Part shown: in pieces, positions 5,266 to 27,485 of the stretch
How positions within the stretch are numbered: position 1 is the first letter of the stretch
Layout of the letters: each line of letters opens with the position of its first letter
Origin: Phapecoctavirus DIJ07P1
Sequence record: OZ035743.1
Reading direction: 5' to 3' (one strand)
Length of the DNA stretch: 64,000 bases
Translations under genes and position numbers: made by a program
Notes under the pieces: generated by a model
The model's database searches: none
Told to the model about the DNA's origin: nothing
Seen by the model: only the letters and a program-made list of their open reading frames with translations

Positions 5266-5310
5266 TGAATGCTATCCTATCATAAAATGTTTAATATTGT
5301 CAAGCTTTAA

Positions 5311-6115: not shown

Positions 6116-6125
6116 TGTTTTCTCC

Positions 6126-6484: not shown

Positions 6485-6500
6485 ATCTCCTCCTATAAAG

Positions 6501-6522
6501 GGGCAGAAGCCCCTTATAAAAC
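6501..6522 (-). terminator. Hairpin downstream of DNA polymerase gene
   Basis: aaggggc-aga-gcccctt stem-loop; weak T-tract. Confidence 0.45.
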
Positions 6523-6532
6523 AATGAGTTAA

Positions 6533-12248: not shown

Positions 12249-12527
12249 TTAAAATGGTTCGTTAGTCTCCATCATATATTCTGCTTCTAGTTCTTCCATA
12301 TGCTTTCTAAATTGGAAAGCAATTTCTGCTACAGTTACATTTAAATCTTTTTCAAAAACTTCTGTAGAGCCTTCATAAAAACGAATACCGTCAATTAAAA
12401 GCCCTCCGTGGTAATCCCAATCACTTTCACGAGAAAGCGGGTTAGGCTCTTCATAATAGTAATCCACCTCCACAACTAAGGCTTTCCCGTTACGAGTGGT
12501 GTATTCAAAATCAAAAGTGTTAATCAT
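12249..12527 (-). CDS. Hypothetical protein
   Basis: 92-aa ORF. Confidence 0.55.
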   Translation of the reverse strand: MINTFDFEYTTRNGKALVVEVDYYYEEPNPLSRESDWDYHGGLLIDGIRFYEGSTEVFEKDLNVTVAEIAFQFRKHMEELEAEYMMETNEPF

Positions 12528-13471
12528 TATAGCTCCTCAAATAAAAGTCTACGACGCTCATTCAACACATCAATGTGATAATGAGTCCTGACATACTTAG
12601 CTAATGCTAATCCTTTCTCCATGCAAACATTAGGAGCACTTAATAAGTATTCCGTAATATCTTTCCACTCGGAAGGTGTTTCAGCAAAGAATAACAAATC
12701 TTTAAACTCTTGTGTATGATAATTCTCACGAGGAGAACAGATCAAAGGTAAACCCTTAGCACCTGCCTCAAGAATTTTAAGATTGCTTTTTGCATTATTA
12801 AACACGTTATCAATCAATGGCGCAAGACTGATTTGATGACCATCGTAAGATTCCATGTAGTTGGCATATGGTCTTACACCTTCATAAACACAAGTTGGTG
12901 CGACATTTTCTCTGATTACAGACCATTCACGACTACTTAAAACTTCAGAATCCCTACGAAAACCACATATTGTAAGATCTTTACCAAAATCAGGCAAGAT
13001 AGCCAAATCTTGTTTATGTGTTTCACTTCCAGCCCAGACTAATGGAGTTTTGGAGTAGCGATCACGGGTCAACACAAATTGACCTTCATCGTAAGGAAGT
13101 CCATTAGGGATTATGTGCACATTATCATTGTATTGTGAAAGTTCAACTTGCAAGGCAGGTGTCGTAGTTGTAACAAGGTCACTGTGCTCTAAAAACCATT
13201 TTAAATGTTCACGAATACCTGATTCAAAAATACCTTCTAACATGTGTCCTTTTGGAATAACTAAAGAGTCATCCAAATCCATAACCATTTTAAAGCCTAG
13301 GTTTTTAAGGGCTAAAAAGCCCTCTTTACCTTTTGTTGGCACTCCGTTAAAAACGAAAACGTTGTGTTTAGGTTGTGAAGAGAACTGCCTTGAGTAAGGC
13401 AGCACTACCCTATGGAAATCGCAGACACTATAATTGATTCCGTTACGATTGTCAAGAATTATTTGTCCCAT
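12527..13471 (-). CDS. Glycosyltransferase, GT-B-like (paralogue 1)
   Basis: 314 aa; C-terminal KSNLKILEAGAKGLPLICS resembles GT1 motif; paralogous to next gene. Confidence 0.6.
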   Translation of the reverse strand: MGQIILDNRNGINYSVCDFHRVVLPYSRQFSSQPKHNVFVFNGVPTKGKEGFLALKNLGFKMVMDLDDSLVIPKGHMLEGIFESGIREHLKWFLEHSDLVTTTTPALQVELSQYNDNVHIIPNGLPYDEGQFVLTRDRYSKTPLVWAGSETHKQDLAILPDFGKDLTICGFRRDSEVLSSREWSVIRENVAPTCVYEGVRPYANYMESYDGHQISLAPLIDNVFNNAKSNLKILEAGAKGLPLICSPRENYHTQEFKDLLFFAETPSEWKDITEYLLSAPNVCMEKGLALAKYVRTHYHIDVLNERRRLLFEEL

Positions 13472-13478
13472 ACTTCAC

Positions 13479-14426
13479 CTACAAACTTTCAATAACCTGG
13501 CGTCGCAATTCGTTTGCATCTGCTAGATTATAGTGTGTTCGAACATGTTCCGCTAAGAACAAGCCACGATCTTCCCGATAGTTTGGATTGCGAAGAAGCT
13601 TAACAATTTCGTAATGCCATTCTGCTTTGTTCTCTGCGTAAGCAACAGCACGAGCATCTACAGGGTTAAAATAAGGTAATACCTTAGAACAAACAATCGG
13701 AATACCCTTTGCTCCAGCTTCCAGGATTTTGAGATTACTTTTACAATTATTAAAATCATTATCTACCAAAGGAGCTATAGCAATAGCATGACTTTCGTAA
13801 ACACTCATGTAATTATCTAAATCTTTTACAGCAGCTTTATATTTAGCGTTTGGTAAATTTCTGCGAATCTTAATCCACTCTTGTCCCGTGATGCTCTGTG
13901 ATGCTTCATATCCCGCAATAGTAAGAAGTTCATCATCGAAAGTATTAGAGACTAGTCGTAAGTCGGGTTCGTGACTAGCACCGCCAGCCCATACAACAGG
14001 GGTACCGGATGAACGATCATTTGACAAAGTGAATTGTCCACTATCAAAAGGAAGTGCATTTCGGATCACAACAACATTCCTATTTAAGTGACGGATCTTA
14101 TATGCCAAGTATTCCGTAGTCACAATAACCACATCAGCAAGCTTAACCATAGCCACAATAGCATGAGTGTTTGACTCGTATAAACTTGCCAAATAATGCT
14201 CTGGATTAAGTTGGTAAAAATCATCTAAGTCTACAACAATCTTAACACCTTGACGTTTCAAAGATAAAACGTATTCTGCACCTTTAGAGTGGATACGGTT
14301 AAACACAACAACATCTTTCTTAGGTTGAATATTATTGTTGTTAAATGGCATAACAATACGATGATAGTCACAACCGCTGTGAGGTTTTGCATCAATTTTT
14401 AGTTTAGACCATTTTTTATTTGACAT
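13479..14426 (-). CDS. Glycosyltransferase, GT-B-like (paralogue 2)
   Basis: 315 aa; KSNLKILEAGAKGIPIVCS; shares VVDLDD / ILEAGAKG blocks with 12527..13471. Confidence 0.6.
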   Translation of the reverse strand: MSNKKWSKLKIDAKPHSGCDYHRIVMPFNNNNIQPKKDVVVFNRIHSKGAEYVLSLKRQGVKIVVDLDDFYQLNPEHYLASLYESNTHAIVAMVKLADVVIVTTEYLAYKIRHLNRNVVVIRNALPFDSGQFTLSNDRSSGTPVVWAGGASHEPDLRLVSNTFDDELLTIAGYEASQSITGQEWIKIRRNLPNAKYKAAVKDLDNYMSVYESHAIAIAPLVDNDFNNCKSNLKILEAGAKGIPIVCSKVLPYFNPVDARAVAYAENKAEWHYEIVKLLRNPNYREDRGLFLAEHVRTHYNLADANELRRQVIESL

Positions 14427-15099
14427 GTGCTAGTGCCTCCTCATAGGAAATTCGGATTTTCCCATTTTTAATATCCTCTAAAGATGCTTTATATTCTTCC
14501 CAGTTAATCCCAATAGCAGCTTCTTTCTCTTCTTTTGTCAGATTAGCAAAAGGCATAGGATTGTTTCCAAAAACATCGTCTGGGTGGATATAAGCCATGA
14601 TACGAAGTGGACAAGGTGTTGCCTGAATACCATGATTCAAACCAGCAGCTTTCAAACGGTGTCCCCATTCGGCATCTTCAAAACCATAACCGTGAGTGTA
14701 AGGGCGGAAATAACCCATCTTCTCAACAACGGCACGAGAATACATTGCAAATTGACACATTGCAAGTTCCCAGAGAATAACTTCTCCTTTGCTTCCAACA
14801 ACTTTATCTTTGAAGTACTCCGGCATACCAAAAAAATCCCATCCTCCAGAAACAGCTTGATCTACAAAGTATGTTTCCCATCCTTCCATGACTGGGTAGC
14901 AATCATCATCAAAAATAAACCAATAATCATAACCTTCTTCATAAAACTGGTGCATAAGTTCATTCCTGGCGTAAGCTACACCTTTACGATCTGGATCGTT
15001 GAATACTCGAAAATCTGCATGTGGATCTGTTACAAGATAGTCTTTAAGTGGACGGACACCTACAGTGATAACACCCACTCCGATTTTAATATTTTCCAT
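14416..15099 (-). CDS. Glycosyltransferase, GT-A fold (DxD)
   Basis: 227 aa; FIFDDDCYP DxD motif and YGFEDAEWG block. Confidence 0.6.
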   Translation of the reverse strand: MENIKIGVGVITVGVRPLKDYLVTDPHADFRVFNDPDRKGVAYARNELMHQFYEEGYDYWFIFDDDCYPVMEGWETYFVDQAVSGGWDFFGMPEYFKDKVVGSKGEVILWELAMCQFAMYSRAVVEKMGYFRPYTHGYGFEDAEWGHRLKAAGLNHGIQATPCPLRIMAYIHPDDVFGNNPMPFANLTKEEKEAAIGINWEEYKASLEDIKNGKIRISYEEALAHVK

Positions 15100-15107
15100 T
15101 TTCTCTC

Positions 15108-15671
15108 CTAGATAGTTTTACTGTGATCGTGACAGTGTAATAAATGATGTATAGACCGTTGAGGATTTGTTTGACCTAATCTGTAAATGTGAAACAGATA
15201 CATTCCCCGCATCAATCCTAACCTCTTTCCTTTTTCATGTAAAGTGCGAGAGAAAATTAGGTCGAATTGGATAGATTTTTCTTCGAAAGGAATTTCATTC
15301 CACAATGATTTTCTAAAAAGCAAAAAGAAACCTGCCAGAGGTGTTCCGAAAGGAACTTCTTCAACACTCACTTTATGATATTCTCTTGCAATCTTAGCAT
15401 ATTCTATATGGTTTAGAATATCTGGATCATCGTTAATTTGGTTAGAGAAAAGCTGATAACCACTACCTAACCTGTTACAAGTTGCACCTATTACATCAAA
15501 AGGCGGGTTTGACATAACAAGCTCTTCAAGCATAGATGGTTGATCAGGCAGGAGGAACATTGTATCGGTATCTCTTAAGCACACCCAACTATCATCTGGA
15601 AGAACGGCAATAGCTTCATTGATAGCCTTGCCGATATTTCCTGTCAGATAGGGAGTAATATAATAAATCAT
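15108..15671 (-). CDS. Putative GT-A-like glycosyltransferase
   Basis: 187 aa; VCLRDTDTMF DxD-like motif. Confidence 0.45.
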   Translation of the reverse strand: MIYYITPYLTGNIGKAINEAIAVLPDDSWVCLRDTDTMFLLPDQPSMLEELVMSNPPFDVIGATCNRLGSGYQLFSNQINDDPDILNHIEYAKIAREYHKVSVEEVPFGTPLAGFFLLFRKSLWNEIPFEEKSIQFDLIFSRTLHEKGKRLGLMRGMYLFHIYRLGQTNPQRSIHHLLHCHDHSKTI

Positions 15672-15687: not shown

Positions 15688-15879
15688 TTAACTGTCAGCT
15701 ACAATCCCACGTTTAATCATTTCTTGTTGGATTTGGATGACACGATCTCGTGCTTCCATATATTCTTTAAAAGATTCTTGGAGATGGTCACGAGCTACAT
15801 CCCGTAGTTTAATCAGCTTGTCGTTTGTCACTTCTTGAAGAGAGATCTCGCCAGTTTCATTGGTCCCAAGCGTTTTCAT
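15688..15879 (-). CDS. Hypothetical protein
   Basis: 63-aa ORF. Confidence 0.5.
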   Translation of the reverse strand: MKTLGTNETGEISLQEVTNDKLIKLRDVARDHLQESFKEYMEARDRVIQIQQEMIKRGIVADS

Positions 15880-16087
15880 TTACAACCTCCTTAATAGCTA
15901 CTGCACAGTTCTTACAAATACATTGACCTTTGTTCTTAGAAATTTCAATGTAAGGTTCATTTTCGTTTTCTCCGCGTCGTGAATCGTATATTACAGTATT
16001 GAAGCAGACAACGCAAATGTTTTTAATAACGACATATTTTTGCACTTTTTGTTTAGTGCGAAAATTGACTTCAATAACTTCTCCCAT
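15857..16087 (-). CDS. Small zinc-ribbon protein
   Basis: CVVC...CICKNC Cys pairs; start moved to internal Met (MGEVIEV) to avoid long overlap. Confidence 0.5.
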   Translation of the reverse strand: MGEVIEVNFRTKQKVQKYVVIKNICVVCFNTVIYDSRRGENENEPYIEISKNKGQCICKNCAVAIKEVVNENAWDQ

Positions 16088-16371
16088 CAGTGAATCTCCC
16101 CTAAAATGTTGTTTTGAGACATTACTGCGGAGCATTCTACAGCATCATGAGTCCTTGCAAAACGCTCCCACAACACAACATCTACTTTAAGAACCATACA
16201 AGGATAAATACTGTCGTTGATCATATCAATACTGTATTTATCTACATCCTTTTCATCTTCCATAAACAAAGTAGCGTATGCTTCCAAATGCTTACGGGTG
16301 TAGTATACGTCCTCTTCGGTAAGACCGACAACCAGGTAACTTGCTACAACAACAGTATTATCTTCTTGCAT
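16087..16371 (-). CDS. Hypothetical protein
   Basis: Start moved to internal Met (MQEDNT) preceded by GGGGAG RBS. Confidence 0.5.
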   Translation of the reverse strand: MQEDNTVVVASYLVVGLTEEDVYYTRKHLEAYATLFMEDEKDVDKYSIDMINDSIYPCMVLKVDVVLWERFARTHDAVECSAVMSQNNILGEIH

Positions 16372-16372
16372 T

Positions 16373-16894
16373 TTAACTCCCCTTTGGTAGATAGAAACCA
16401 TGCACTTTATCTCGATAAACAAGACGCATATCACGCTCCCAGTGTGTCTTTATATTCCGCTTCTTGAAGTATAGAGCACCTTTAGTAACATCTAAAACAG
16501 ACCGCAATTCAGGAAAATGTTTCTCTAAATAAAGTAAACGCTCCGCTATTGCTTTTGCTTCCTGCCACTTATCTTTCTCTGTTACGTTAAAAGTTTTCGC
16601 ATATGAGAATTGCCCTTTCTGGAACAAGACTCCTCTGACTGTGTTAGGAAAGTAGGCATCATTTCTTCTATTGATTACCACATTCCCAACGGCATTCATT
16701 CCTTTTTTACCCAGACCGCGACCTTCTGCGTAAATTGCACAAGCTAATAGAATTTTATCATTATATTGTTTTGTACATTTGTGAACTACTTTAGCGGTTT
16801 TTACGTTTGCAGCTTCGGCTTTCGCCACAACAGGTGTAAATGTAAAAGCAGTTAAGGATAGTAACGCAACTGTTACAAAGTTTTTTATCAGCAA
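16373..16894 (-). CDS. SleB-like cell-wall hydrolase with signal peptide (lysis-enzyme candidate)
   Basis: 173 aa; N-terminal hydrophobic signal ending AKA; resembles SleB/Hydrolase_2 family; own TTGCAA-17-TATACT promoter upstream. Confidence 0.65.
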   Translation of the reverse strand: MLIKNFVTVALLSLTAFTFTPVVAKAEAANVKTAKVVHKCTKQYNDKILLACAIYAEGRGLGKKGMNAVGNVVINRRNDAYFPNTVRGVLFQKGQFSYAKTFNVTEKDKWQEAKAIAERLLYLEKHFPELRSVLDVTKGALYFKKRNIKTHWERDMRLVYRDKVHGFYLPKGS

Positions 16895-16955: not shown

Positions 16956-16975
16956 GAGGGGGATTTCTCCCCCTC
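16956..16975. terminator. GC hairpin between TerD operon and hydrolase gene
   Basis: gagggggatttctccccctc perfect stem-loop. Confidence 0.5.
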
Positions 16976-16993: not shown

Positions 16994-17596
16994 TTATGGA
17001 CATTCATACCATTCTTTTTTACCACCGAAGGCCATCACCACATCGCAAATATCCAGACCAGCTTTACCTACACCATATGCTTTCAGTTTCCATTCCCCAT
17101 CTTCACGAACCAAGGAAGCCACGTGGCAGATTGTGTTGCCAGCTACTTCAGGAGCCAGGAAGTCAAAATCCAGAATTTCCACATTGCGCTCGGAGTCGAA
17201 GATTTTAAGCATACCTTCAGAAGCATGACCAAAACGTTTCAGACCTGTATCATCATCAATGGTCAGAACAAAGGCAATCTCTTGTGCATCAGGAGAGATT
17301 TTAGCCAGAGTAATATCAATCTGCTCCATGCTGCCAGTTCCATCACGAACATCGTCACCAGCGAAGGTAGAACGTTCAGGATCAAACTTGTTAGCATAGC
17401 AAACCAGATGACGTGCAGACAGCATTTCAGGATTGCCAGCGGCATTGTGACGACAAACCAGTGCACTTACATCCAGATCCAGTTTAGAATCAGATTTCCA
17501 AGAGAATTCCAGGCGCAGTTCTTTCAGAGCCGGAGCAACTTTCTTCAGGGAAATTTTTTCGCTAGAGCCTTTTTTCAGGGAAATTTTATCAGTCAT
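16994..17596 (-). CDS. terD: TerD-domain protein
   Basis: 200 aa; N-terminal repeated ISLKKG/ISLKK and overall TerD-family character. Confidence 0.75.
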   Translation of the reverse strand: MTDKISLKKGSSEKISLKKVAPALKELRLEFSWKSDSKLDLDVSALVCRHNAAGNPEMLSARHLVCYANKFDPERSTFAGDDVRDGTGSMEQIDITLAKISPDAQEIAFVLTIDDDTGLKRFGHASEGMLKIFDSERNVEILDFDFLAPEVAGNTICHVASLVREDGEWKLKAYGVGKAGLDICDVVMAFGGKKEWYECP

Positions 17597-17611
17597 CTTT
17601 TGTCTCCTCTA

Positions 17612-17881
17612 TTATTTAAGTGTAATACCAGTTACAGTCAATTCTACTTCCAAAAGCTTAGATGTGTTTTGGATTGATACTAATTGTGCATGATGGTTTA
17701 GTTCTACAGCAGAATAATCGTTTTCCCCATCATCTACTTTTAAATAAACAATGACTTCACTAAGGTCTAAACCATTTTCGTCAAATGCATTTTCATAGAC
17801 GAAAGTATCTCCTACATCCAAATCCTTAATGGTAAGGCATCGTTTATTTATTTTTTGCTCATCAATTTCGAAGTTTAACAC
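17612..17881 (-). CDS. Small protein, paralogue A (immediately upstream of terD)
   Basis: 89 aa; shares FxI..E / DLG..F.Y / EVxLxVTxITLK blocks with 18903..19181. Confidence 0.6.
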   Translation of the reverse strand: MLNFEIDEQKINKRCLTIKDLDVGDTFVYENAFDENGLDLSEVIVYLKVDDGENDYSAVELNHHAQLVSIQNTSKLLEVELTVTGITLK

Positions 17882-18110
17882 TTCTTCCTCCTAATGTTAT
17901 CTCCGGTTTGTATATACGAAGAATTATAGCATTTTCATTTTCTTTGTCAACCCATTCTTCATAATCAGGCCATACATGAATCTCTACTCTACTTACAATA
18001 TCTTCCATTCGCACAGTCCCAATGAAATACTCTTTGAGACTGCGCATAATGAAAGCTTCTCTCTCGCGCCAATAATTTTCTATGACTTGAGAGGCAAGCT
18101 CGTCGATCAT
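17862..18110 (-). CDS. Hypothetical protein
   Basis: 82-aa ORF. Confidence 0.5.
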   Translation of the reverse strand: MIDELASQVIENYWREREAFIMRSLKEYFIGTVRMEDIVSRVEIHVWPDYEEWVDKENENAIILRIYKPEITLGGRSVKLRN

Positions 18111-18901
18111 TTTTTAGCACCTACTTTAACAACCCACTCTCCGAACTCTTCAGATAAGAGTTTGTCATAAAGCTCTGAATCTGTCAAGTCTAAATCTTTA
18201 ATGCCAATAAAACCAACATTATCATAAGCATTTGCCAGTTCTTTCAGGAAGCCAAACTTCTCATTACCAACGCCAACCATGAACCAATAAATAGGTTTAT
18301 TCTTATTCTCTTCAATAAGACGACGAACAGCACTAGGATCACCATTCTCACCATCCGTCTGGAAGAATACAACACCAGGGGTAACGTCAGCACCTGGTTC
18401 AGACACAGCTACAACCTTTTCACGCTCTACAGATACTGTTTCAGTTTTACCAAGCAGACGATTAAAGAAGCCTTTCTTTGGAGCCTCCTCTTGTACCACT
18501 TGTTTAGTGGTAATATATTTGGTAACAGTGCCAAAATACTCATCGTAGATATCTGCCATTACAGGGGCGTAATTTGTTCCACCTCCGATACGAACATTGC
18601 GCATACATTTACCAACATAGTCATCGTAAACGTCTGCTGTTGCTGGAGTAAGCTCTTGGGAACTCGTATTGAAGGCCCACATATCAATTTGTTGATTATC
18701 GTCGAACAGCATACCAAAAGGAAGCAGTTTACCTACAAAATCACTCACTACCCCACTAGAATATAGACCATGCATACTACCAGAAATATCTAGAGCACAT
18801 GCTACACGAAGAACAATCTTACCTTCATTCAGGTTCTTATTCTTTTTCAGAGAGAAAGCAAGGTTTTCTTGACGTTTTTTCAGGCTGATTTTCTCGGACA
18901 T
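18107..18901 (-). CDS. vWA-domain protein with TerD-like N-terminus (TerY/TerF-like)
   Basis: 264 aa; N-terminal MSEKISLKK...SLKK; MIDAS motif DISGSM (DxSxS). Confidence 0.75.
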   Translation of the reverse strand: MSEKISLKKRQENLAFSLKKNKNLNEGKIVLRVACALDISGSMHGLYSSGVVSDFVGKLLPFGMLFDDNQQIDMWAFNTSSQELTPATADVYDDYVGKCMRNVRIGGGTNYAPVMADIYDEYFGTVTKYITTKQVVQEEAPKKGFFNRLLGKTETVSVEREKVVAVSEPGADVTPGVVFFQTDGENGDPSAVRRLIEENKNKPIYWFMVGVGNEKFGFLKELANAYDNVGFIGIKDLDLTDSELYDKLLSEEFGEWVVKVGAKK

Positions 18902-18902
18902 A

Positions 18903-19181
18903 TTATTTCTCCTTCTTAAGTGTAATATTGGTAACTTCTAAATCTACTTCCACCATATTTGTATCTGGCGGGATGCAATGAGTATAGCCTCGTTGTGCTA
19001 GTGATCCATTAATACAGATCGCACTGTTTGTGGAATTTTTAATGAACACCAAGTTACGGTAGGTATCCAACCCTGCGTCTTCATAGGCATCATAATACAT
19101 GAATGTGGCCCCTATGCCAAGATCTTCGAAAGCAATAGGTAAATCCTGACTTTTTTCTTCTTGAATATTGAATCTAAACAC
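18903..19181 (-). CDS. Small protein, paralogue B (immediately upstream of vWA gene)
   Basis: Paralogous to 17612..17881; start set at GTG after GGAGG RBS (ORF-track ATG at 19247 would overlap upstream gene by 74 nt). Confidence 0.55.
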   Translation of the reverse strand: MFRFNIQEEKSQDLPIAFEDLGIGATFMYYDAYEDAGLDTYRNLVFIKNSTNSAICINGSLAQRGYTHCIPPDTNMVEVDLEVTNITLKKEK

Positions 19182-19737
19182 GCATACCTCCTCTACCAAT
19201 TTTGAAGCCCAAATCGTAAGCTTCCTTAGTGATCTTTTGTAACTCACTTATAGGAAGTGTTACAAGAGGATCATCTTCTTCAATTTCCATCTTGTCATCT
19301 TCTGTTTCAATGAGAGTATTATGCACTTTGTGATAAGGGTTGTCAACACGTTTAAACTTATTCTTTTCTGTGCTGAAAAAACAATCTGGATCTTCTTCAC
19401 CATCACCCCAACCTTGGTTAGGATCTCCGTCAGATTGTTCTGTAGGGATTTCACCTGTAAAATACTCTTCCAGCACCATAGCGATACCGTCCCTTGGATT
19501 TGAGGAATGCATCAAATCACAAACCTTACTCCAATCCATAGCCCATTCGAATCGTTCGCGAACACCATTTTCATCCTCCTTTCCAGAGAAAACACAACCA
19601 TAACTATCATAGTTGCCATACATCTCTTCAATAACAACACCGTCCTTCAAAAGAAAGAGGTAGCAAGGTGATCCGTCGAAAGAAGTAGAAAGGGCAGCTT
19701 TGCCCGATTCTTTGCACAAAAAACTAAAACAACCCAT
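19174..19737 (-). CDS. Hypothetical acidic protein
   Basis: 187-aa ORF. Confidence 0.6.
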   Translation of the reverse strand: MGCFSFLCKESGKAALSTSFDGSPCYLFLLKDGVVIEEMYGNYDSYGCVFSGKEDENGVRERFEWAMDWSKVCDLMHSSNPRDGIAMVLEEYFTGEIPTEQSDGDPNQGWGDGEEDPDCFFSTEKNKFKRVDNPYHKVHNTLIETEDDKMEIEEDDPLVTLPISELQKITKEAYDLGFKIGRGGMRV

Positions 19738-19940
19738 TACAAACCCTCCTTCAGATTATCAAGAGCTACAGTGGTTTCACAAAATTCTCCATAAGCTTTA
19801 TGATGTTCCAGAAAAGCTTCGGGTCCACCCCAGTCATTATCTTGTGTATTCCAACCATCAATAAAAGCATCTTCAATGATTGTGATCAGTTCTTGTCGGG
19901 TTAACTGGATAATATTAGGATCGTTATCGTAGTTAAACAT
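19737..19940 (-). CDS. Hypothetical protein
   Basis: 67-aa ORF. Confidence 0.55.
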   Translation of the reverse strand: MFNYDNDPNIIQLTRQELITIIEDAFIDGWNTQDNDWGGPEAFLEHHKAYGEFCETTVALDNLKEGL

Positions 19941-20106
19941 CTTCTTCCTCCTCTAAAATATGAAACCCGTAATTACAATAGTCCTGAAAGGTTTCGTGCG
20001 CAAGATCTTCTATATCCTCTTGAGACATATCATCTTCAATTTCGATATCCACAACCTCATTGCATCCACACCAAGCAGTTTCAATATTCACTCGTAATAT
20101 TTTCAT
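19936..20106 (-). CDS. Hypothetical small protein (below ORF-track cutoff)
   Basis: about 56-aa ORF read manually (MKILRVNIETAWCGCNEVVD...); ATG overlaps upstream stop. Confidence 0.35.
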
Positions 20107-20303
20107 TACTCCTCCTCCTCATTGAAGTCAATATCTGCAAGGAGTTGGAATTTACGGAAGTTACGACAACCTTCATAAATATAACAATCACGACAAACTG
20201 CTAGAACACTTGGGGGATATATGCCTCCCATCGGTGCGAATCGTTTTTCGTCATCATAACGGACACCAATGTCTTCATCAATTATATAGATACGGATTCT
20301 CAT
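20106..20303 (-). CDS. Hypothetical Cys-containing small protein
   Basis: 65-aa ORF. Confidence 0.5.
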   Translation of the reverse strand: MRIRIYIIDEDIGVRYDDEKRFAPMGGIYPPSVLAVCRDCYIYEGCRNFRKFQLLADIDFNEEEE

Positions 20304-21412
20304 TTACCAAGCCCTCGTTTCACAGCAGCTACCATCCCGTCTTCCAAAGATTGAACTTCATTAATATAATCAACACGAGCAGCACGGGCTTCCGTATTGA
20401 TGCGGTTAGTTTCTTCCAACATCTTAACCAAGTTTTCCTGATCGTGACGCAGAGTTTCAATATCCAACACTTGACGGTTAGCCAGTGCTGCTGCTTCGAT
20501 CTGATTCTGTGTGGCAAGATCGCTACCCAGTTTAATTGCCAGGTTAAATTCATCAAGAACGTTATTCTGCGTCTCTGCTGCTTTCATTTGACGTAAGCTC
20601 TCGATATACATTGAGAAGTTAGCAGAGTAAGCAGGAATAACATTATTTACTATGTTACGCGCAGATCGCATTAAGCTTGCAGAAACTTTTTGCATACCTT
20701 GTACACGCGGTCCCATTTGGACACACAGTAGGCGCAATGCTTTTAAATCTGCAATACGAATCTCCAGAAGATCCAAAGTATCTCGGATCACTTGTCGCTG
20801 TTCTACTGCATCTTCTGGAAGAGCAGCCAAAGCTTGTTCTTCTTTTTCATAGGTTGCTGTTAGAAGCTGCATATCTCGGTTCAAACTTGCAGCATATTGT
20901 CCAATAGCTTGATGTAGCTTTTCAAGATATACCAAGGAATCTTCTTCTTTGCGAATATCCATTTGAAGGTTTTTTACCAACTCTTCAATACGGTTATTAA
21001 CATTATCAAACTCCCCAAACAGATCTTCTTTCATACCCATAACTTTTTTAATGAGTTTAGTAATACCCTTGCTTTGTTTAATAGAGTTTGGATCAAGTTG
21101 TTTTGCCTGTTTAATCAAAGCTGTGAGTCGTTCACTCATCTGATCGCCTTGATTACTACGTTGATGTTTTAATACCTCGGCATTCAAGGAACGCAAGGTT
21201 GTTCCTGCCTCTGCTCCAATCTCTTCGATCTCCTGTCGGGTCATAGAAGGCAAAACTGGAACTTCTTGCGGTGCCGCTGGTGCATAAACAGGACTGGCAT
21301 CTAACACGCTTGGAGCGAATACAGATTTACTTGCATCTGTTGTTGCAGCAAATACGCTCATTTCAGGTTTCTTCTGACAGCCAGTAGCTGCTTTTAAAAA
21401 TGGACTTGTCAT
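20300..21412 (-). CDS. Coiled-coil protein, possibly TelA-like
   Basis: 370 aa, helical/coiled-coil composition; TelA assignment rests only on size, composition and Ter context. Confidence 0.6.
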   Translation of the reverse strand: MTSPFLKAATGCQKKPEMSVFAATTDASKSVFAPSVLDASPVYAPAAPQEVPVLPSMTRQEIEEIGAEAGTTLRSLNAEVLKHQRSNQGDQMSERLTALIKQAKQLDPNSIKQSKGITKLIKKVMGMKEDLFGEFDNVNNRIEELVKNLQMDIRKEEDSLVYLEKLHQAIGQYAASLNRDMQLLTATYEKEEQALAALPEDAVEQRQVIRDTLDLLEIRIADLKALRLLCVQMGPRVQGMQKVSASLMRSARNIVNNVIPAYSANFSMYIESLRQMKAAETQNNVLDEFNLAIKLGSDLATQNQIEAAALANRQVLDIETLRHDQENLVKMLEETNRINTEARAARVDYINEVQSLEDGMVAAVKRGLGK

Positions 21413-21999
21413 TCTTCATTCTCCTCTTCTGCATCTCTTATATATGGTGAAACACCGTACTCTTTAGCTACTTTAACCCAATCGTCCCATTTATACAACC
21501 ATAATTTTCCTTCGGTCCCTTCTTTATCTGATTTCAACCACATATTAGGTTGCTTACCTGGGTACATGCGATTAGGTTTACGATTATAACCTCTAACACA
21601 TCTTGTCGCAAACCTATCTACCAGAACAAGAACATATTTATATTCGTGGTTCAACGGCTCTTTGGAAGTGGCTTTAGGATTAGCCCCTAACTCTGCTGCC
21701 AGTTTTTGCCAATGAGCACCGTGTCTACTAAACTTACCCATACAACCATCAATAGCATGAGCAATTTCGTGCTTCATTGTATCCACGATCATATCTCTTG
21801 TAGAGTTCTTATGCAAGTGCCAATTTACAACAACAATTTTATCTCGGTAGTTGCACCAACCGAAAGAGTTATTCACTTTGTTTCTAACACAAGCTTTATA
21901 TCCTGCTTCACGTAACATGTTGTAGTAAACAGGAAAATCTTCTTTTATTTCCTGCATCACTTCCCACCACAAGAGTTGCAAGTCTCTCTCGGTATACAT
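21409..21999 (-). CDS. SprT-like zinc metalloprotease
   Basis: 196 aa; MKHEIAHAIDG HExxH motif. Confidence 0.65.
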   Translation of the reverse strand: MYTERDLQLLWWEVMQEIKEDFPVYYNMLREAGYKACVRNKVNNSFGWCNYRDKIVVVNWHLHKNSTRDMIVDTMKHEIAHAIDGCMGKFSRHGAHWQKLAAELGANPKATSKEPLNHEYKYVLVLVDRFATRCVRGYNRKPNRMYPGKQPNMWLKSDKEGTEGKLWLYKWDDWVKVAKEYGVSPYIRDAEEENEE

Positions 22000-22002
22000 A
22001 AC

Positions 22003-22596
22003 TTACACCTTAAAAGTGAAATGCGTGGTCGTGGTTTCAAAATCAGGACCAGATAAACGTGCACTGAAATCTGAAATATTTGTAATTAAAAAGCTTTTAT
22101 GCATACCTAACACAGCTACGCTTTCAATATCTTCTACTAACATTTCAATCATGTTAGAAACATGGCTGAACGTAGAGTTTTGTTTTTTGATGGTGTAGAA
22201 AGAAAGATTCCCACCTGCTGTATAAGATACCTCTTCAAAATCTTTAATGGTATATTGTGTGCCATCAGTAAAGAAAATGGTAGCTTTATTAGTAGCACGT
22301 TTCTTGTTTTTTGGTCCTTTTTTACGTTTACTGCGAGTAGGCAAACCGTTTGGGAACACCATAGCTACAAATTCTTCAGCAGAAACCTCCTTACCGAAAT
22401 CATAACCATAAGAAACAGCGTCTATAAACTCGTCATCTTCATTTTTAAAATAATGGAAATAGGGCCAATTTGAGAGATTATCGAGCATCTTATGCTCATC
22501 CACAGCAGAGAACGTATCCCTCAAAGCACGTGTGATTTGCAAAGCATTAGGCAAACTTTTAACACCTGTAATGGAAGTACGAATAGAAATTGTCAT
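22003..22596 (-). CDS. Hypothetical protein
   Basis: 197-aa ORF. Confidence 0.6.
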   Translation of the reverse strand: MTISIRTSITGVKSLPNALQITRALRDTFSAVDEHKMLDNLSNWPYFHYFKNEDDEFIDAVSYGYDFGKEVSAEEFVAMVFPNGLPTRSKRKKGPKNKKRATNKATIFFTDGTQYTIKDFEEVSYTAGGNLSFYTIKKQNSTFSHVSNMIEMLVEDIESVAVLGMHKSFLITNISDFSARLSGPDFETTTTHFTFKV

Positions 22597-22610
22597 TGTT
22601 TTTCTCCTTA

Positions 22611-23048
22611 TTAACGTCGCTTGCTACGAGATGAACTCTTTTTACTTAAAGGGCTATTGTAAGATTTACGAGTTGTATAGCTACTATTTGTTTTAAAAGT
22701 TTGTCTCGGCTTTTCATAAGTTTTTATCTCTTGTTTAGGCTTACTATAAAAATTAGTTTTCGGTTTAGGTGTATTATAATGTTTATTAATAATCGTTCTG
22801 TTATCGTTATAATCCCCACTGCTACGATTACTACCGCCACTCATCATATGCCCTAACAACATACCTGTAGCAAACTCACCAACACCGTTACTACTAGAAC
22901 CGCCACCATTGTTGATAATAGTTGTATCTCCGTCAGATCCTTGTTGAGCGTATTGTTGAGGAGGTTGTTGGTATTGTGCAGGATTTGTTTCATCCTCGCA
23001 AGCTGTTAAAAAGATACAACCAATTAAAATCAGGGCTAGTTTTTTCAT
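22611..23048 (-). CDS. Lipoprotein, Gly/Ser/Gln-rich
   Basis: Start set at MKKLALILIGCIFLTAC (lipobox LTAC); low-complexity mature region. Confidence 0.6.
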   Translation of the reverse strand: MKKLALILIGCIFLTACEDETNPAQYQQPPQQYAQQGSDGDTTIINNGGGSSSNGVGEFATGMLLGHMMSGGSNRSSGDYNDNRTIINKHYNTPKPKTNFYSKPKQEIKTYEKPRQTFKTNSSYTTRKSYNSPLSKKSSSRSKRR

Positions 23049-23231
23049 ATTTGCTTTCCTCGTTTTGGCTATTAATACATCTGTGTTTGAAATCTCCAGA
23101 GAAGCAATAAAGTTGCTCTCCATCTCGGTATAAACTCACTTTACTGCCGTTGATTACGCTTGTCAATACAAAAATTACAACAAACAACCCTATTGCAAAA
23201 CAAATATTTTCAAACACAACCAACAAGTATT

Positions 23232-23582
23232 TCATTTTAAAAATACCTCATCATCAGTTTCATTATCCCAGAAGAACAAGTCCCAACCATTCGGATCATT
23301 CCATTTAGCTGCTGGAGAAGTCCATATTTGCTCGATATCAATATTCAAAACTTCACCGTTTCGTTTTGAAACAGCTTTAGTTAATTCCCAACGGGATACA
23401 GGCTCCACTTCCCCTGAACCACTCCCACAACAAGCTACCACATTAGGAGGCAAATTAATTGGATCTTTGGTCACGATCATAACGCTTACCCCAGGGTAAA
23501 CTTTTGAAAGATAATCTAAAACGTAATCCACATCACCAGATAAATCCCAAACAAGTTCTTGAATTTCATCAAAATTATTCAT
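23232..23582 (-). CDS. Hypothetical protein
   Basis: 116-aa ORF. Confidence 0.6.
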   Translation of the reverse strand: MNNFDEIQELVWDLSGDVDYVLDYLSKVYPGVSVMIVTKDPINLPPNVVACCGSGSGEVEPVSRWELTKAVSKRNGEVLNIDIEQIWTSPAAKWNDPNGWDLFFWDNETDDEVFLK

Positions 23583-23602
23583 AAGTCTCTCCTATAAAAT
23601 AG

Positions 23603-23618
23603 CCTCCCGAAGGAGGCT
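23603..23618 (-). terminator. Hairpin downstream of terC
   Basis: gcctcc-cgaa-ggaggc stem-loop, A/T-rich tail on minus strand. Confidence 0.5.
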
Positions 23619-23624
23619 CATCTA

Positions 23625-24599
23625 TTAAACAGAAGCTTCTTCTTTTTCAGGGAAGATAAAGCTTGCAATAACACCAAGAGATAATGTGCCTAGAACAATC
23701 ATCAGACTTACGTTAGGGGAAATATCATGCGGGAGGAATGACCACTTGGCATGAAGTGTTTCACCGAACGGGTGATACATAAGTTTAGCACCAACAAACA
23801 CCAGAACCACAGCAACAGCTTTCTCTAAGTGAACCAGATATTTCACAGCTACACTTAACACAAAGAAAAGTGCACGTAAACCAAGAACAGCCATCAGCAT
23901 TGCAGAATAAACTAGCAGAGGTTCTTGTGTCACACCGATCACAGCCGGAACTGAATCAAAAGAGAAGACAATATCTGTAAGCTCAATAACAAACACACAA
24001 AGAAGAGCAGGAGTTGCATATTTAATACCATTCTTAATGGTGATGAACTTTTCACCATCCAGTGCATTGTGCACAGGCAGAACTTTACCTACTAAACGAA
24101 CAGCCCAATGTTTAGAGTAATCAATATCCTCTTCTTCGTCACCACCTTTGATGATAGCCACGGCAGACCAAGCTACAATCAAACCGAACAACACTTGGAC
24201 CGACCAATGAAGGTTAAACAAAGCGGTCCCTGCTGCAACAAAAATACCTCGGAAGACAATGGCTCCTGCAATCCCCCAAAGTAGAATCTTATGTTGGAGA
24301 TGTGTGCTCTTAATTCCAAAGCTTGCAAAAATTGCCATGAACACCATTAGGTTATCTACAGAAAGACTCTTTTCCAACACATAGCCACTTAGGAAAAGCG
24401 CGGCAAACTCTTTACCATGTTCTACCCAAATGAATGCGTAATACCCTAAAGCTAAAGCAATCCAAAAAACAGACCAAAGCAAAGCAGATTTAATTCCAAT
24501 TTCTTTATTCTCTTTATGACCAAAGAAATCGATACCAATAGACAATGCCAAAATACCAACTAAAACAACTACATCAATAATTGGGAAACCGAGTTGCAT
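23625..24599 (-). CDS. terC: TerC-family integral membrane protein
   Basis: 324 aa, multiple hydrophobic segments; EKSLSVDN matches TerC signature. Confidence 0.8.
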   Translation of the reverse strand: MQLGFPIIDVVVLVGILALSIGIDFFGHKENKEIGIKSALLWSVFWIALALGYYAFIWVEHGKEFAALFLSGYVLEKSLSVDNLMVFMAIFASFGIKSTHLQHKILLWGIAGAIVFRGIFVAAGTALFNLHWSVQVLFGLIVAWSAVAIIKGGDEEEDIDYSKHWAVRLVGKVLPVHNALDGEKFITIKNGIKYATPALLCVFVIELTDIVFSFDSVPAVIGVTQEPLLVYSAMLMAVLGLRALFFVLSVAVKYLVHLEKAVAVVLVFVGAKLMYHPFGETLHAKWSFLPHDISPNVSLMIVLGTLSLGVIASFIFPEKEEASV

Positions 24600-24914: not shown

Positions 24915-25388
24915 TTAAAGTTTATAAATAGTCACATCGTGACCTGTTTTTACTAAAGTTTCTTCAATCATCACTTGGATGATAGCCCAATTACCTCCAG
25001 CATATCCAGCGCCAATCATAGGTAAGCCGATCTTACATTTTTGGTCACGGAGAAGCAAATCATTAGCCATAGCTATTAGTGCATCGTAAAGTGCATCATA
25101 GTCCAACTGACGACCTTTAGCATTGTATCCGTAACGGTATTGCCCGTATAGATTATATACCAAAGGGTCTGATTGTTCGTCTGGCACCCCTAAACTAAAA
25201 GAACCTAACTTACTTTGATCACCAGCCATTGTGTCTAAATCTGCCGCATATGCATAAGGGAATGCTCGTTTAATTTGCGGAGCAATTCCTGCTCCCATAT
25301 TACACATACAATTGCAACAATGAGCAATAACAGTTACTTCACCTGCTTTAGCGGCATCAATAAGATTACCTGTTTTCATTTTAAGCAT
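24915..25388 (-). CDS. Macro-domain protein (ADP-ribose binding/processing)
   Basis: GNLIDAAKAGEVTVIAHCCNCMCNMGAGIA and IGLPMIGAGYAGG blocks resemble macro-domain motifs; start set at Met after AAGGAG RBS. Confidence 0.65.
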   Translation of the reverse strand: MLKMKTGNLIDAAKAGEVTVIAHCCNCMCNMGAGIAPQIKRAFPYAYAADLDTMAGDQSKLGSFSLGVPDEQSDPLVYNLYGQYRYGYNAKGRQLDYDALYDALIAMANDLLLRDQKCKIGLPMIGAGYAGGNWAIIQVMIEETLVKTGHDVTIYKL

Positions 25389-25401
25389 TTTTAGCTCCTT
25401 A

Positions 25402-26229
25402 TTACAGAATGTGTTGTTTTGTGTAACGATCCAAGAATTCAAAGTTTTCAGCATACTTTGAAATTCGGTTGTAACCTTCTCCCAAACATCCGAAGAAAAG
25501 TTGCTCTACATAGTAGTGTGGCAATTGGCTAAGAATGATTTTGAAGTCTTCGTGATTTTGGCCCATAAGATACTTAATAGGACGAACAAGACACTGTGCA
25601 TCACGTTCTTCATTAATCATTTTAACAAACGCTTCTGGTGTATTGATGTAGTTAAAATTCAGTTTAGCTTCAGTATCTGCTTGATTACCTTCATATTTTG
25701 CAAAATACAAGAAGTAAACATCATTTTTAACTTGATTTTCATCAAGAATCTCAATCAGTTTGTCTTCATGAGTTCCGGTGATATTTACATCATCAATGAA
25801 CACAAGCTTCTTATCACCCCAGAATTCTTTGTTGCAGTAGAATGTATCCCCATCAATAAGTTTCTTACGACTAGCTTTATCCAAGAAACCATAATCGTTG
25901 ATATAGCTAACTTTACGATGAATAATATCCAGTTCTGCTGAACGACCTTGATCATATTGTGCTTGCAACATATTAAAGTAATTAATAAAATGATCTGTCA
26001 TCATTGTTGCAGCATTGTGCACATGGTTATAAGGAGAAGGGATGATAACAAATTGTTCCCCAATATGTTTCATTGCCACTTGAGCAAAAAACTGAAGTGC
26101 CAATTCTTTACCCATACGACGCGCAGCTTGGTTACTACCAAATTTCAATTTTGAATAGTCTTTGATATCAAAAGTAGCAGTTTCCAGGTCATCAAATTTA
26201 TTTGCAAAAATTTGAGTTTGATTACGCAT
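25402..26229 (-). CDS. Phosphoribosyltransferase-like (PRTase) protein
   Basis: 275 aa; KLVFIDDVNITGTHEDKL resembles PRPP-binding loop. Confidence 0.55.
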   Translation of the reverse strand: MRNQTQIFANKFDDLETATFDIKDYSKLKFGSNQAARRMGKELALQFFAQVAMKHIGEQFVIIPSPYNHVHNAATMMTDHFINYFNMLQAQYDQGRSAELDIIHRKVSYINDYGFLDKASRKKLIDGDTFYCNKEFWGDKKLVFIDDVNITGTHEDKLIEILDENQVKNDVYFLYFAKYEGNQADTEAKLNFNYINTPEAFVKMINEERDAQCLVRPIKYLMGQNHEDFKIILSQLPHYYVEQLFFGCLGEGYNRISKYAENFEFLDRYTKQHIL

Positions 26230-26899
26230 TTACAATTTCTCCTCTTTTAAGTTTCTCTAGTAAGTCGTTAGGGTTCTTAATATGACAGAAGTTAATCCCT
26301 ATGTCAACACATTTACCATCAAATTCTTCGCTGTCCCCAACATGTAAAATCTCTTCAGCCTTCAAAGGAATGCTTGAATATGTGGCGGTCCTAACAAAGA
26401 ATCTAGGATCTGGTTTACATAACAGATGTTCGTCTGAAAAATGCATAAATTCAAAACAATTCCAACTGTCGAACATACAAGCACGACGCAAAATATCCCC
26501 AGATATAAAATTAGTATTGCTTTTAATACTAAGATCATATTTACCAGACAAGTATAGCAAACAAACTGGCAAATCTAAAGCGATATGTGGAGGAAATTTA
26601 AGAAACCATTGCTCACACTCAAAACGCATTTGTGCAGATTCTACAGGGGTTAAACCTATCTTTCTTCCCAACATATTCCATGCATATGCTACACCTTCTG
26701 CACACCCATTTAGTGCAGCATTATCCATAATTTCTTTGGCATCTTTATATGCTTCTTTTGCCGCACGTTCAGACATTCTACCATATGTAGCAATAGTGTG
26801 CGTACGTGCATCTGCATAGTTTTGATTGGCAGAAATAAGAGTATTCCATACATCAAAAGAAATATGTTTTATTGTCATACTAGGCCCACCACGCATCAA
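26222..26899 (-). CDS. HAD-like hydrolase (non-canonical motif I)
   Basis: ISFDVWNTLI (DxWxT in place of DxDxT) and ILHVGDSEEFDG (motif IV-like); true start may be Met at 26878. Confidence 0.55.
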   Translation of the reverse strand: MMRGGPSMTIKHISFDVWNTLISANQNYADARTHTIATYGRMSERAAKEAYKDAKEIMDNAALNGCAEGVAYAWNMLGRKIGLTPVESAQMRFECEQWFLKFPPHIALDLPVCLLYLSGKYDLSIKSNTNFISGDILRRACMFDSWNCFEFMHFSDEHLLCKPDPRFFVRTATYSSIPLKAEEILHVGDSEEFDGKCVDIGINFCHIKNPNDLLEKLKRGEIVNA

Positions 26900-27485
26900 G
26901 ATTTAAGTTACTGTCTACCACAACTTGTTCTATGTGGTAGCCTTTTATCTGTATCCCACTGTTCAAGAGCATATCATACGCTTCATTGAAACGCAACTTA
27001 TCTTCTGCGGAATATAAGCGAGCATTATAAAATCGGTAATCAATTTCTTCAGCATTAGAAGAAATACGGAAGAAGTTTGTTTCTACTTCGGGATCACTTG
27101 CTGAAGTCTTAATGTGAACTTCTCCATAATTTTCTTTACTTAGATCCATGAAAAGAACACAGGCAACATGTTTAAACATTCGTTCCAGTTTGTAACGAAC
27201 AACATTGAAACCTGCATTCTCAAGTTTTTCTACACACTGCAACATTAAAGTAGTGTCGAGATCGCTTTGATACTTTGTTAACATACGATCACGTTGAGAC
27301 TTTGTATCCCGATGTAAATCAATTGTTGTGCATTTGGCACCAATAATCTTAGCTGCTTTCATCAACTCTTCAGAACTAACGTTAGATAAAGTAAGATGAA
27401 AATGGGCTTTCCACACTTTTTTAGCAGGGACACCAAAAGATTTATCCCCACTATTCGGCATGTTGACTACTACACTATGTTGCAT
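26880..27485 (-). CDS. Hypothetical protein
   Basis: 201 aa; one HxTx element (HLTL) but no second, so 2H phosphoesterase not supported. Confidence 0.55.
   Translation of the reverse strand: MQHSVVVNMPNSGDKSFGVPAKKVWKAHFHLTLSNVSSEELMKAAKIIGAKCTTIDLHRDTKSQRDRMLTKYQSDLDTTLMLQCVEKLENAGFNVVRYKLERMFKHVACVLFMDLSKENYGEVHIKTSASDPEVETNFFRISSNAEEIDYRFYNARLYSAEDKLRFNEAYDMLLNSGIQIKGYHIEQVVVDSNLNLDAWWA

Follow-up and report, generated by a model that had tools for sequence, protein, structure and literature searches.

The genome of Phapecoctavirus DIJ07P1 (sequence record OZ035743.1) raises the question of what a lytic phage might gain from genes of the Ter system, which has been linked to phage, colicin and xenobiotic resistance (PMC7824862, PMC6141743). 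Bacteria, plasmids and phages commonly encode Ter proteins, for which no mechanism has been agreed upon. We analysed a stretch of 64,000 nucleotides from this genome, hereafter referred to as the window, in which the minus strand carries all real genes between ~4 and 38 kb. Positions 16994-24599, which were delimited in an initial annotation made from the sequence alone, run exactly from the stop codon of terD to the start codon of terC and represent a conserved, reduced Ter module of a phAPEC8-like myovirus (genus Phapecoctavirus, subfamily Stephanstirmvirinae). Over its full length, this region shares 99.3% identity with the Escherichia phages ESCO25, AV125 and ESCO13, and it is more than 98% identical to dozens more phAPEC8-like genomes; across more than 50 records, the nucleotide identity amounts to 98-99.3%. 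As to its role, our tentative answer, which we regard as quite possible, is that the module protects the infected cell, namely its membrane and its balance of divalent cations.

The identity of the parts is nearly certain. Pfam scans covered most open reading frames (ORFs) between 13.5 and 32 kb, omitting three small ORFs at 15688-16434 and the ORF at 22990-23235, and they supported all Ter- and Tel-type families that the initial annotation had assigned to these 7.6 kb of the minus strand. The TerD protein matched PF02342 with 98.9 bits (cut-off 25.3) over profile positions 3-177 of 187, aligned to the solved TerD structures 2kxt (Klebsiella; E=1.5e-15) and 3ibz, and carries the anticipated ISLKK repeat at amino acids 5-9 and 15-19. 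It is 100% identical across most Phapecoctavirus genomes. The vWA protein matched the vWA-TerF-like profile PF10138 with 130.1 bits (cut-off 29.4) and contains DISGS at amino acids 38-42. Its metal ion-dependent adhesion site (MIDAS) is complete, as D38, S40, S42, T109 and D183 were invariant in 15 diverse homologues, and its homologues form 62 clusters, mostly from phage-sized contigs. The TerD-like N-terminus that had been ascribed to this protein turned out to be a double (I/F)SLKK motif of ~20 amino acids, with no Pfam match to a TerD domain. Standalone vWA-TerF-like proteins from Pseudomonas, Caulobacter and Neobacillus elements begin with an equivalent motif, while fused TerD-vWA forms of TerF occur in bacteria (clusters P0059-P0062 and the bacterial comparator locus L005). 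TelA, previously suspected mainly on account of its size, matched PF05816 with 115.7 bits (cut-off 30) over positions 13-327 of 332, and is thus a near full-length member of its family. TerC scored 138.3 bits against PF03741, has multiple hydrophobic segments and carries the expected EKSLSVDN at amino acids 76-83. In addition, the proposed SprT-like protease was confirmed by PF10263 with 36.7 bits (cut-off 25.6) and by its HExxH motif, HEIAH, at amino acids 77-81.

The notion that the phage holds a full Ter set did not survive these searches, because TerB is lacking and TerD is single. The Pfam scans returned no TerB and one TerD only, and home-made hidden Markov models (HMMs), built from the sequences in hand and run over the whole window, detected no second TerD, TerC, TelA or vWA protein. 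Furthermore, none of the ORFs of the module matched the Pfam families for ATP-grasp_Ter, C-C-bond lyase, PELOTA/StiP or PRTase_2, which are present in the canonical bacterial cluster. The terZABCDEF operons of bacteria and plasmids (IncHI2 R478, E. coli O157) have the TerC, TerD, TerF-vWA, PRTase and HAD families in common with the phage. In contrast to these operons and the genes linked to them, which have four to six TerD proteins, the phage has one TerD, a vWA protein unfused to a TerD domain, and no TerB, AIM24 or PP2C. A metagenomic bacterial example, locus L005, combines the same Ter families with TelA; it encodes several TerD proteins, a fused TerD-vWA TerF, ATP-grasp_Ter, C-C-bond lyase, PELOTA/StiP, PRTase_2, AIM24, TelA and PP2C. 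In B. subtilis, the chromosomal stress operon yceCDEFGH encodes three TerD proteins, TerC/MeeF, YceG and TelA/YceH. Like the phage, it joins the TerD, TerC and TelA families, its TerC having a demonstrated Mn2+-related function (PMC10550928), and it differs in its several TerD paralogues, its chromosomal location and the absence of a vWA protein.

The module is not scattered in related phages. It is syntenic in phage phi92 (Justusliebigvirus), in Klebsiella phage 05F01 and in relatives from IMG/VR. With the profiles supporting the families and synteny being kept, neither of the outcomes that had been named as speaking against the initial annotation was found. In phi92, the genes are ordered HAD, PRTase_3, macro, small membrane protein, gp183, TerC, small membrane protein, lipoprotein, u197-like, TelA, gp177, gp176, u187, phrog_11278, vWA, TerD, gp171 and hydrolase. 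This is the order of the window, at an identity of 81% for TerD, 78.5% for TelA, ~67% for vWA and 65% for PRTase_3. The core order is kept even in 05F01, of which TelA is just 41% identical. This phage retains the lipoprotein, SprT-like, u197-like, TelA, phrog_11278, vWA, TerD and hydrolase genes, and its region that we examined does not contain the PRTase, HAD and macro genes. At the position of TerC, 05F01 encodes a DUF475 protein, a relative of TerC (4531-5595 of locus L003). Indeed, Stephanstirmvirinae-like contigs split into a TerC-type branch and a DUF475-type branch, the latter comprising 05F01 and the IMG/VR loci L017, L019, L021 and L024. This represents a like-for-like swap of two related membrane families, with Phapecoctavirus and Justusliebigvirus carrying TerC.

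The association of these families extends to unrelated phages. Scanning IMG/VR with an alignment of eight vWA sequences yielded 23 viral loci, the neighbours of which were scored with home-made HMMs. TerD adjoined vWA in 21 of them, the stored sequences of the other two ending at vWA; TelA was located within 8 kb in 20 loci, and TerC or DUF475 was present in 17, four more being cut by contig ends. The clustering of the Ter families is far beyond chance, because the same families adjoin at these frequencies in independent viral loci. Pfam matches revealed contiguous TelA, vWA, TerC and TerD in Otagovirus phiPsa347, and TelA, vWA, DUF475 and TerD in Caulobacter phage CcrSC. Other viral contigs were ordered DUF475-TelA-vWA-TerD, TelA-TelA-vWA-DUF475-TerD or TerD-vWA-TerC. 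Altogether, the trio of TelA, vWA and TerD accompanies TerC or DUF475 in no fewer than five phage lineages, and tblastn detected relatives of TelA in 222 phage records and of TerD in 148. Ter trios or quartets were also seen within a few kb of NAMPT-like genes in a Neobacillus prophage-like element and in Otagovirus (L004 11600-13928; L008 923-2713). In the Neobacillus element a PRPP-synthetase-like gene is also near, which is reminiscent of phage NAD+ reconstitution pathways.

In view of these numbers, the module cannot be called unusual, as the initial annotation had it: the quartet occurs in many lytic phages, among them Brevundimonas as well as Caulobacter phages and further jumbo phages, and has been published, also for this clade. 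The element had been deposited as sequence and described in print before this work. Near-identical records contain products named "TelA-like protein", "Integral membrane protein TerC", "TerD family protein", "tellurium resistance protein" and "VWA domain-containing protein", while in most deposited records the vWA, PRTase_3 and TerD genes are labelled "hypothetical". The 2018 paper on phage ZCKP1, which is 98.4% identical over this region, reported "four tellurite resistance genes" and proposed colicin resistance and protection against superinfection (PMC6141743). Iyer et al. (2021) described Ter systems in jumbo "and certain other related smaller tailed phages", one of them with PRTase and HAD, and proposed competition with superinfecting phages (PMC7824862). 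Likewise, the papers on phiKp34 (PMC8386662) and PhiPsa374 (PMC9796965) reported terC, terD, terF-vWA and telA in virulent phages. PhiPsa374 and other Otagovirus members, phiKp34, the Caulobacter phiCbK-like phages (Bertelyvirus) and Acinetobacter phage ME3 share the quartet of TerC (or DUF475), TerD, standalone TerF-type vWA and TelA, and for ME3 PRTase and HAD genes were also reported, as here (PMC7824862). In those phages the quartet is contiguous, whereas here it is spread over 7.6 kb among clade-specific genes, namely those for the lipoprotein, the SprT-like protein, u197, the phrog_11278 paralogues and small membrane proteins, and the region ends, unlike theirs, at a secreted cell-wall hydrolase. 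No substantive difference was observed with phAPEC8, ESCO13, ZCKP1 and phi92, except that in phi92 the SprT-like gene is missing and the macro protein is longer. The new details are the upstream extension of the module, the conservation of gene order with the DUF475 swap, five acidic residues of TerC, and the TerC promoter and terminator. Our analysis adds no new kind of element, as the genes were deposited and discussed in print; the gain is a sharper description of a compact quartet found again in several phage lineages, of a seemingly transport-competent TerC, the DUF475 swap within the clade, conserved accessory membrane genes and an occasional physical link to HAD and PRTase_3. This anatomical detail narrows the experiments to be done and leaves the overall picture unchanged, and the phage cassette is convenient for deletion and expression work on Ter function.

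The TerC protein passes the cut-off of the NCBIfam Alx-subfamily model (TIGR03718, 318.6 versus 246.4 bits) and is 34% identical to Alx, the TerC-family Mn2+ exporter of E. coli. Replacing the acidic residues E86, D92, E213, D216 or D222 of Alx abolishes Mn2+ export, and these residues align with E76, D82, E206, D209 and D215 of phage TerC. Judged from this alignment, the phage protein looks transport-competent. It does not represent a recent capture of the host alx gene, because none of 5,426 E. coli genomes displayed DNA similarity to it; the protein identity is, moreover, as low as mentioned above. We also considered a Mn riboswitch of the yybP-ykoY type, which is typical of alx, and discarded this idea, as no Rfam family reached the gathering threshold in the whole window; instead, the phage gene is preceded by a short conserved 5′ hairpin.

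Conceivably, TerC could serve metal homeostasis rather than the exclusion of competitors. TerC would then export Mn2+ (or Ca2+/Zn2+), or metalate secreted phage proteins during Sec export, with TerD, vWA and TelA as regulators, and metal levels in cytoplasm and periplasm would be set for the enzymes of the phage. This would be in agreement with the Alx-subfamily assignment of TerC and its five retained residues, and with the finding that TerC proteins of B. subtilis metalate exported enzymes via the Sec pathway (PMC10550928). The conserved gene block also includes a hydrolase with a signal peptide and a lipoprotein, and terC is a putative separate transcription unit with a predicted promoter and terminator. 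On the other hand, no Mn2+ requirement is known for SleB-type hydrolases, the host already possesses Alx and MntP, and no Mn riboswitch precedes the phage gene. In addition, the co-occurrence of TelA, vWA and TerD with TerC or DUF475 in the phage lineages mentioned above would be left unexplained. Taken together, we consider metal homeostasis as the sole purpose somewhat unlikely.

With regard to transcription, terC has its own conserved predicted promoter and terminator, which sets it apart as a putative separate transcription unit. The -35 element and the leader hairpin upstream of TerC are kept in phi92 and in phage SF1-1, the stem with compensatory changes, such as a G:C to A:T change in the phi92 copy (~6190-6210 of the phi92 locus L002). 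This hairpin is located between the promoter-like site and the ribosome-binding site, and may be an mRNA-stabilising or regulatory stem. The terminator-like hairpin directly after TerC is likewise kept in phi92 through compensatory changes. The best sigma70-like sites were mostly located on the coding strand, and their positions upstream of TerC, the lipoprotein, phrog_11278 and vWA, TerD, and PRTase_3 are conserved between the window and phi92, and hence between two genera. A perfect consensus site faces TerD and the 89-amino acid phrog_11278 paralogue (par89). The phi92 genome has a GC hairpin with a T-run after its terD gene; in the window, a hairpin directly follows terD as well, and is in turn followed by a promoter-like site for the next gene. 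The conserved positions of promoters, hairpins and terminators suggest transcription by the host RNA polymerase.

That next gene encodes a secreted SleB-like cell-wall hydrolase (Hydrolase_2). In all three genera this gene comes after terD, as it does in the Stephanstirmvirinae-like IMG/VR loci L012-L024, with the exception of L014, of which the stored sequence ends at vWA. This conserved position, together with the membrane theme among the accessory genes, would fit a role of the module in lysis timing, in which it steadies the proton motive force or the periplasm and thereby keeps the hydrolase inactive until the programmed time. Yet the hydrolase gene has its own promoter-like site and is separated from terD by the hairpin, the module yielded neither a holin nor a spanin gene, and in Otagovirus and the Caulobacter phages no hydrolase is annotated next to the quartet. 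We therefore regard a function in lysis timing as improbable.

The initial annotation had correctly placed the module next to nucleotide-metabolism genes, as NrdG and NrdD are immediately upstream. Its limits did not take in the Ter-linked PRTase_3 and HAD genes, which lie upstream of terC at 25402-26899 on the minus strand. The ComF-like phosphoribosyltransferase PRTase_3 scored 144.2 bits against PF15610 (cut-off 28.7) and has an intact phosphoribosyl pyrophosphate (PRPP) motif, VFIDDVNITG; relatives were found by tblastn in 156 phage records. The HAD protein reached 19.5 bits with PF00702, below the cut-off of 26.4, and its matches to the HAD-IA/REG-2-like models of NCBIfam also remained below their cut-offs. 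Its motif I, FDVWNTL (26837-26857), is the same in phi92, has no equivalent of the second Asp found in classical HAD phosphatases and resembles the REG-2 or dehalogenase type, so that the protein may not be a simple phosphatase. PRTases and HAD phosphoesterases represent the "nucleoside/nucleotide derivative" arm of the Ter system (Anantharaman et al. 2012, in the summary given by Iyer et al., PMC7824862). In all phages that we checked, HAD and PRTase_3 are paired as direct neighbours. The tightest physical link between this biosynthetic pair and Ter genes in a viral contig was seen in the 20-kb IMG/VR contig L030, which could be a prophage fragment and where TerD, HAD, PRTase_3 and vWA-TerF-like follow one another at 5682-8606 according to Pfam. 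The pair forms a separable cassette, because it also occurs away from Ter genes, for example in Rhizobium phages and in Xanthomonas phage XaC1.

Three more genes are located around this pair. The macro-domain protein, for which we consider a true start near 25388 likely, scored 23 bits with PF01661 (cut-off 22), and its best match in a defence library was the macrodomain of the DarG antitoxin (PADLOC E=4e-10); it may serve the phage against DNA ADP-ribosylation of the DarT type. The phi92 homologue is longer, with an N-terminal extension. A 73-amino acid protein with two membrane segments is conserved as phi92 gp184 and in IMG/VR relatives. The 201-amino acid protein upstream of HAD was modelled by AlphaFold2 (AF2) as tandem ferredoxin-like lobes with a predicted local distance difference test score (pLDDT) of 82, and has the invariant motifs HxHxT (amino acids 28-32) and ExHxK (amino acids 122-126). 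No convincing fold match was obtained in the PDB, so that it may be an uncharacterised enzyme, which may or may not belong to the cassette.

These neighbours could be taken to indicate that the whole region acts in counter-defence through a nucleotide signal. PRTase_3, HAD, the DarG-like macro protein and the 201-amino acid protein would make or destroy a nucleotide or ADP-ribose derivative, and the Ter proteins would act as sensors or effectors, such that host immunity is blunted; ADP-ribosylation could be reversed, or a depleted metabolite replaced or mimicked. Consistent with this are the DarG match of the macro domain, the intact PRPP motif, and the insertion of HAD and PRTase_3 in the Ter cluster of the unrelated contig L030. 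Moreover, the pair lies beside an NMN adenylyltransferase/NUDIX gene in Rhizobium phages, and NAMPT-like genes are near the Ter trios of the Neobacillus element and Otagovirus. However, the HAD match is weak with an incomplete motif I, the 201-amino acid protein has no recognisable fold match, and the relatives of the 05F01 type keep the Ter core without PRTase_3, HAD and macro genes in the region examined. A nucleotide-signal function of the module is, in our opinion, quite unlikely.

Product names such as "tellurite resistance" in GenBank would imply yet another role, namely tellurite resistance of the host, or else that the genes are non-functional cargo. Resistance would not be heritable by the host because the phage is strictly lytic, and the minimal tellurite determinant terBCDE is incomplete here. 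The strong conservation of sequence, gene order and key residues across genera argues against decay. We disfavour both possibilities as extremely improbable.

The protection of membrane and cation balance that we propose instead would start with transcription of the Ter genes by the host RNA polymerase, together with the replication genes, so that a small membrane-associated Ter complex is installed early in infection. TerC would insert in the inner membrane and move Mn2+ or another divalent cation. Below this membrane, TelA, the vWA protein and TerD would join into a complex that depends on metal; the PRTase and HAD enzymes might contribute a nucleoside-like ligand. By stabilising the envelope and the cation balance, the complex would shield the infected cell from superinfecting phages, pore-forming colicins and membrane-acting abortive-infection effectors until the phage's own lysis. 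In this way, the phage would turn to its own advantage the phenotypes of phage inhibition and colicin resistance that plasmid ter operons are known for. In favour of this idea, we count the retention of the Alx residues in TerC, of the MIDAS in vWA and of the PRPP motif in PRTase_3, and the conservation of the module under divergence. Further support is provided by the quartet in unrelated phages, the conserved promoter and terminator positions, the lipoprotein and two small membrane proteins among the accessory genes, and the published links of Ter to phage and colicin resistance, with competition against superinfecting phages proposed for phage copies (PMC7824862, PMC6141743).

Several observations weigh against such a protective role. 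As classic phenotypes, phage inhibition and colicin resistance were mapped to terZABCDE(F), including TerB and several TerD paralogues, and the phage lacks TerB and the multiple TerD proteins of that operon. The acidic Ca2+-binding loop of TerD, GDDVRDGTGSMEQ versus GDNRTGEGDGDDE in Klebsiella TerD, appears to be partly degenerate, the first acidic residues being kept and GDGDDE being replaced by GTGSME. The PADLOC models, which cover catalogued anti-phage defence systems such as TerY-P, did not match TerD, vWA, TelA or TerC, their sole match being that of the neighbouring macro protein to DarG, and a functional link of HAD and PRTase_3 to the Ter genes is not certain here, as the pair is also found away from them. 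Our promoter calls are consensus matches only, and the sigma70-type consensus scan returned 41 sites, which is not above the 35.8 +/- 5.5 expected from shuffled sequence. Lastly, the authors of the PhiPsa374 study stated that the role of the Ter genes in infection is unknown (PMC9796965), and we found no experiment on any phage Ter gene in the literature.

A more far-reaching version of the protective role, which we consider doubtful, is that TerC or DUF475 would form, with TerD, standalone vWA and TelA, a minimal Ter machine that is self-sufficient and optionally driven by a nucleoside-like ligand made by HAD and PRTase_3. This machine would have been acquired repeatedly by unrelated lytic phages as an inner-membrane shield against superinfecting phages, colicins or membrane-acting abortive-infection effectors. 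If this were true, a phage cassette of four to six genes would offer the simplest handle yet on the long-unsolved biochemistry of Ter, and the lipoprotein, u197 and the SprT-like protein would be new partners of the Ter system.

Features of the Ter module and its flanks in the window
Feature	Coordinates	Strand	Basis
Secreted SleB-like cell-wall hydrolase (Hydrolase_2), signal peptide	16373-16894	minus	Pfam PF07486 E=1.4e-17
Hairpin GAGGGGG-AGAAAT-CCCCCTC directly after TerD stop	16956-16975	minus	sequence
TerD-domain protein, 200 aa	16994-17596	minus	Pfam PF02342 E=3.2e-28
phrog_11278 paralogue 1, 89 aa	17612-17881	minus	PHROGs E=3.8e-44
Small ORF, 82 aa	17862-18110	minus	ORF listing
Perfect sigma70 consensus TTGACA-16-TATAAT facing par89 and TerD	17950-17923	minus	consensus match; inside ORF 17862-18110
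Standalone TerF-type vWA protein, 264 aa	18107-18901	minus	Pfam PF10138 E=1.6e-37
phrog_11278 paralogue 2	18903-19247	minus	PHROGs E=1.9e-48
187-aa protein (u187)	19174-19737	minus	alignment; no Pfam match
Sigma70-like site upstream of phrog_11278 and vWA	19346-19318	minus	consensus match
Three small ORFs, 67, 57 and 65 aa	19737-20303	minus	ORF listing
TelA-family protein, 370 aa	20300-21412	minus	Pfam PF05816 E=3.2e-33
SprT-like zinc metalloprotease	21409-21999	minus	Pfam PF10263 E=4.2e-9
197-aa protein (u197), basic linker and conserved beta-rich C-terminal domain	22003-22596	minus	alignment
Lipoprotein, 145 aa, lipobox LTAC	22611-23048	minus	sequence; phrog_21570
Single-pass membrane protein, 81 aa	22990-23235	minus	hydrophobic segment aa 1-36
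Sigma70-like site upstream of lipoprotein	23166-23138	minus	consensus match
116-aa protein, specific to Phapecoctavirus	23232-23582	minus	phrog_27498; no Pfam match
Intrinsic-terminator-like hairpin AGCCTCC-TTCG-GGAGGCT and T-run, directly after TerC	23601-23618	minus	sequence
TerC/Alx-type integral membrane protein, 324 aa	23625-24599	minus	Pfam PF03741 E=3e-40
TerC 5′-leader GC hairpin, without T-run	24637-24617	minus	sequence
Promoter-like site TTGACA-16-TAAGAT upstream of TerC	24677-24650	minus	consensus match
Two-segment membrane protein, 73 aa	24681-24902	minus	hydrophobicity
Macro-domain protein	24915-25454	minus	Pfam PF01661
Ter-linked ComF-like phosphoribosyltransferase PRTase_3	25402-26229	minus	Pfam PF15610 E=6.1e-42
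HAD-superfamily hydrolase, non-canonical motif I	26222-26899	minus	weak profile matches
201-aa protein	26880-27485	minus	AF2 model, alignment

Among the genes interspersed with the quartet, the predicted lipoprotein was confirmed by its lipobox. Its start is an internal Met at 23048 (MKKLALILIGCIFLTAC), and the upstream part of the longer ORF overlaps the separate gene for the 81-amino acid membrane protein, which is conserved as phi92 gp181. The lipoprotein has a Gly-rich GxFxxGxLxGHxxSGG segment and a basic, Ser/Thr-rich tail. Its homologues in phi92 and 05F01 have Asp at position +2, which suggests retention in the inner membrane. The u197 protein is clade-restricted, with only 7 clusters among 5.8 billion proteins, and its gene is always located just upstream of TelA; the AF2 model was poor (pLDDT 63, with the conserved C-terminal half below 50). 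The SprT-like gene is present in Phapecoctavirus and in the 05F01-like phages, and absent from phi92.

Next to the vWA gene, a homologue of phrog_11278 is also found in phi92 and 05F01. The true start of the second paralogue likely gives a protein of ~92 amino acids, and the record of SF1-1 has a 279-nucleotide gene annotated at this position. The N-terminal ~115 amino acids of u187, starting at residue 1 (MGCFSFxCK...GNYDSYGRVF...DPxQGWG), represent a widespread orphan domain, to which no Pfam model matched and which comprises 223 representative clusters (50% identity) at E<=1e-3. We considered u187 as a component of the Ter system and rejected this, as the orphan family is broad and nothing specific links it to Ter. 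Of the three small ORFs between u187 and TelA, the one of 57 amino acids gave a sub-threshold match to DUF7167 only.

With respect to the origin of the related records, genomes that are more than 98% identical over this region were deposited as phages of Campylobacter, Acinetobacter, Klebsiella and Shigella, and a more distant relative (TelA 90% and PRTase_3 79% identical) as a Pseudomonas phage. A number of these host names are probably erroneous or due to contamination. Further upstream on the minus strand, the ORFs at 30091-31506 and 31469-32023 are annotated in a near-identical genome as "ribonucleotide reductase" and "histidyl tRNA synthetase", names that look doubtful because neither ORF had a Pfam match at E<=1e-3. 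Downstream of the hydrolase, at 12527-15671 on the minus strand, there are four consecutive glycosyltransferase-like genes according to the annotation of near-identical phages, with one weak Pfam match to a glycosyltransferase.

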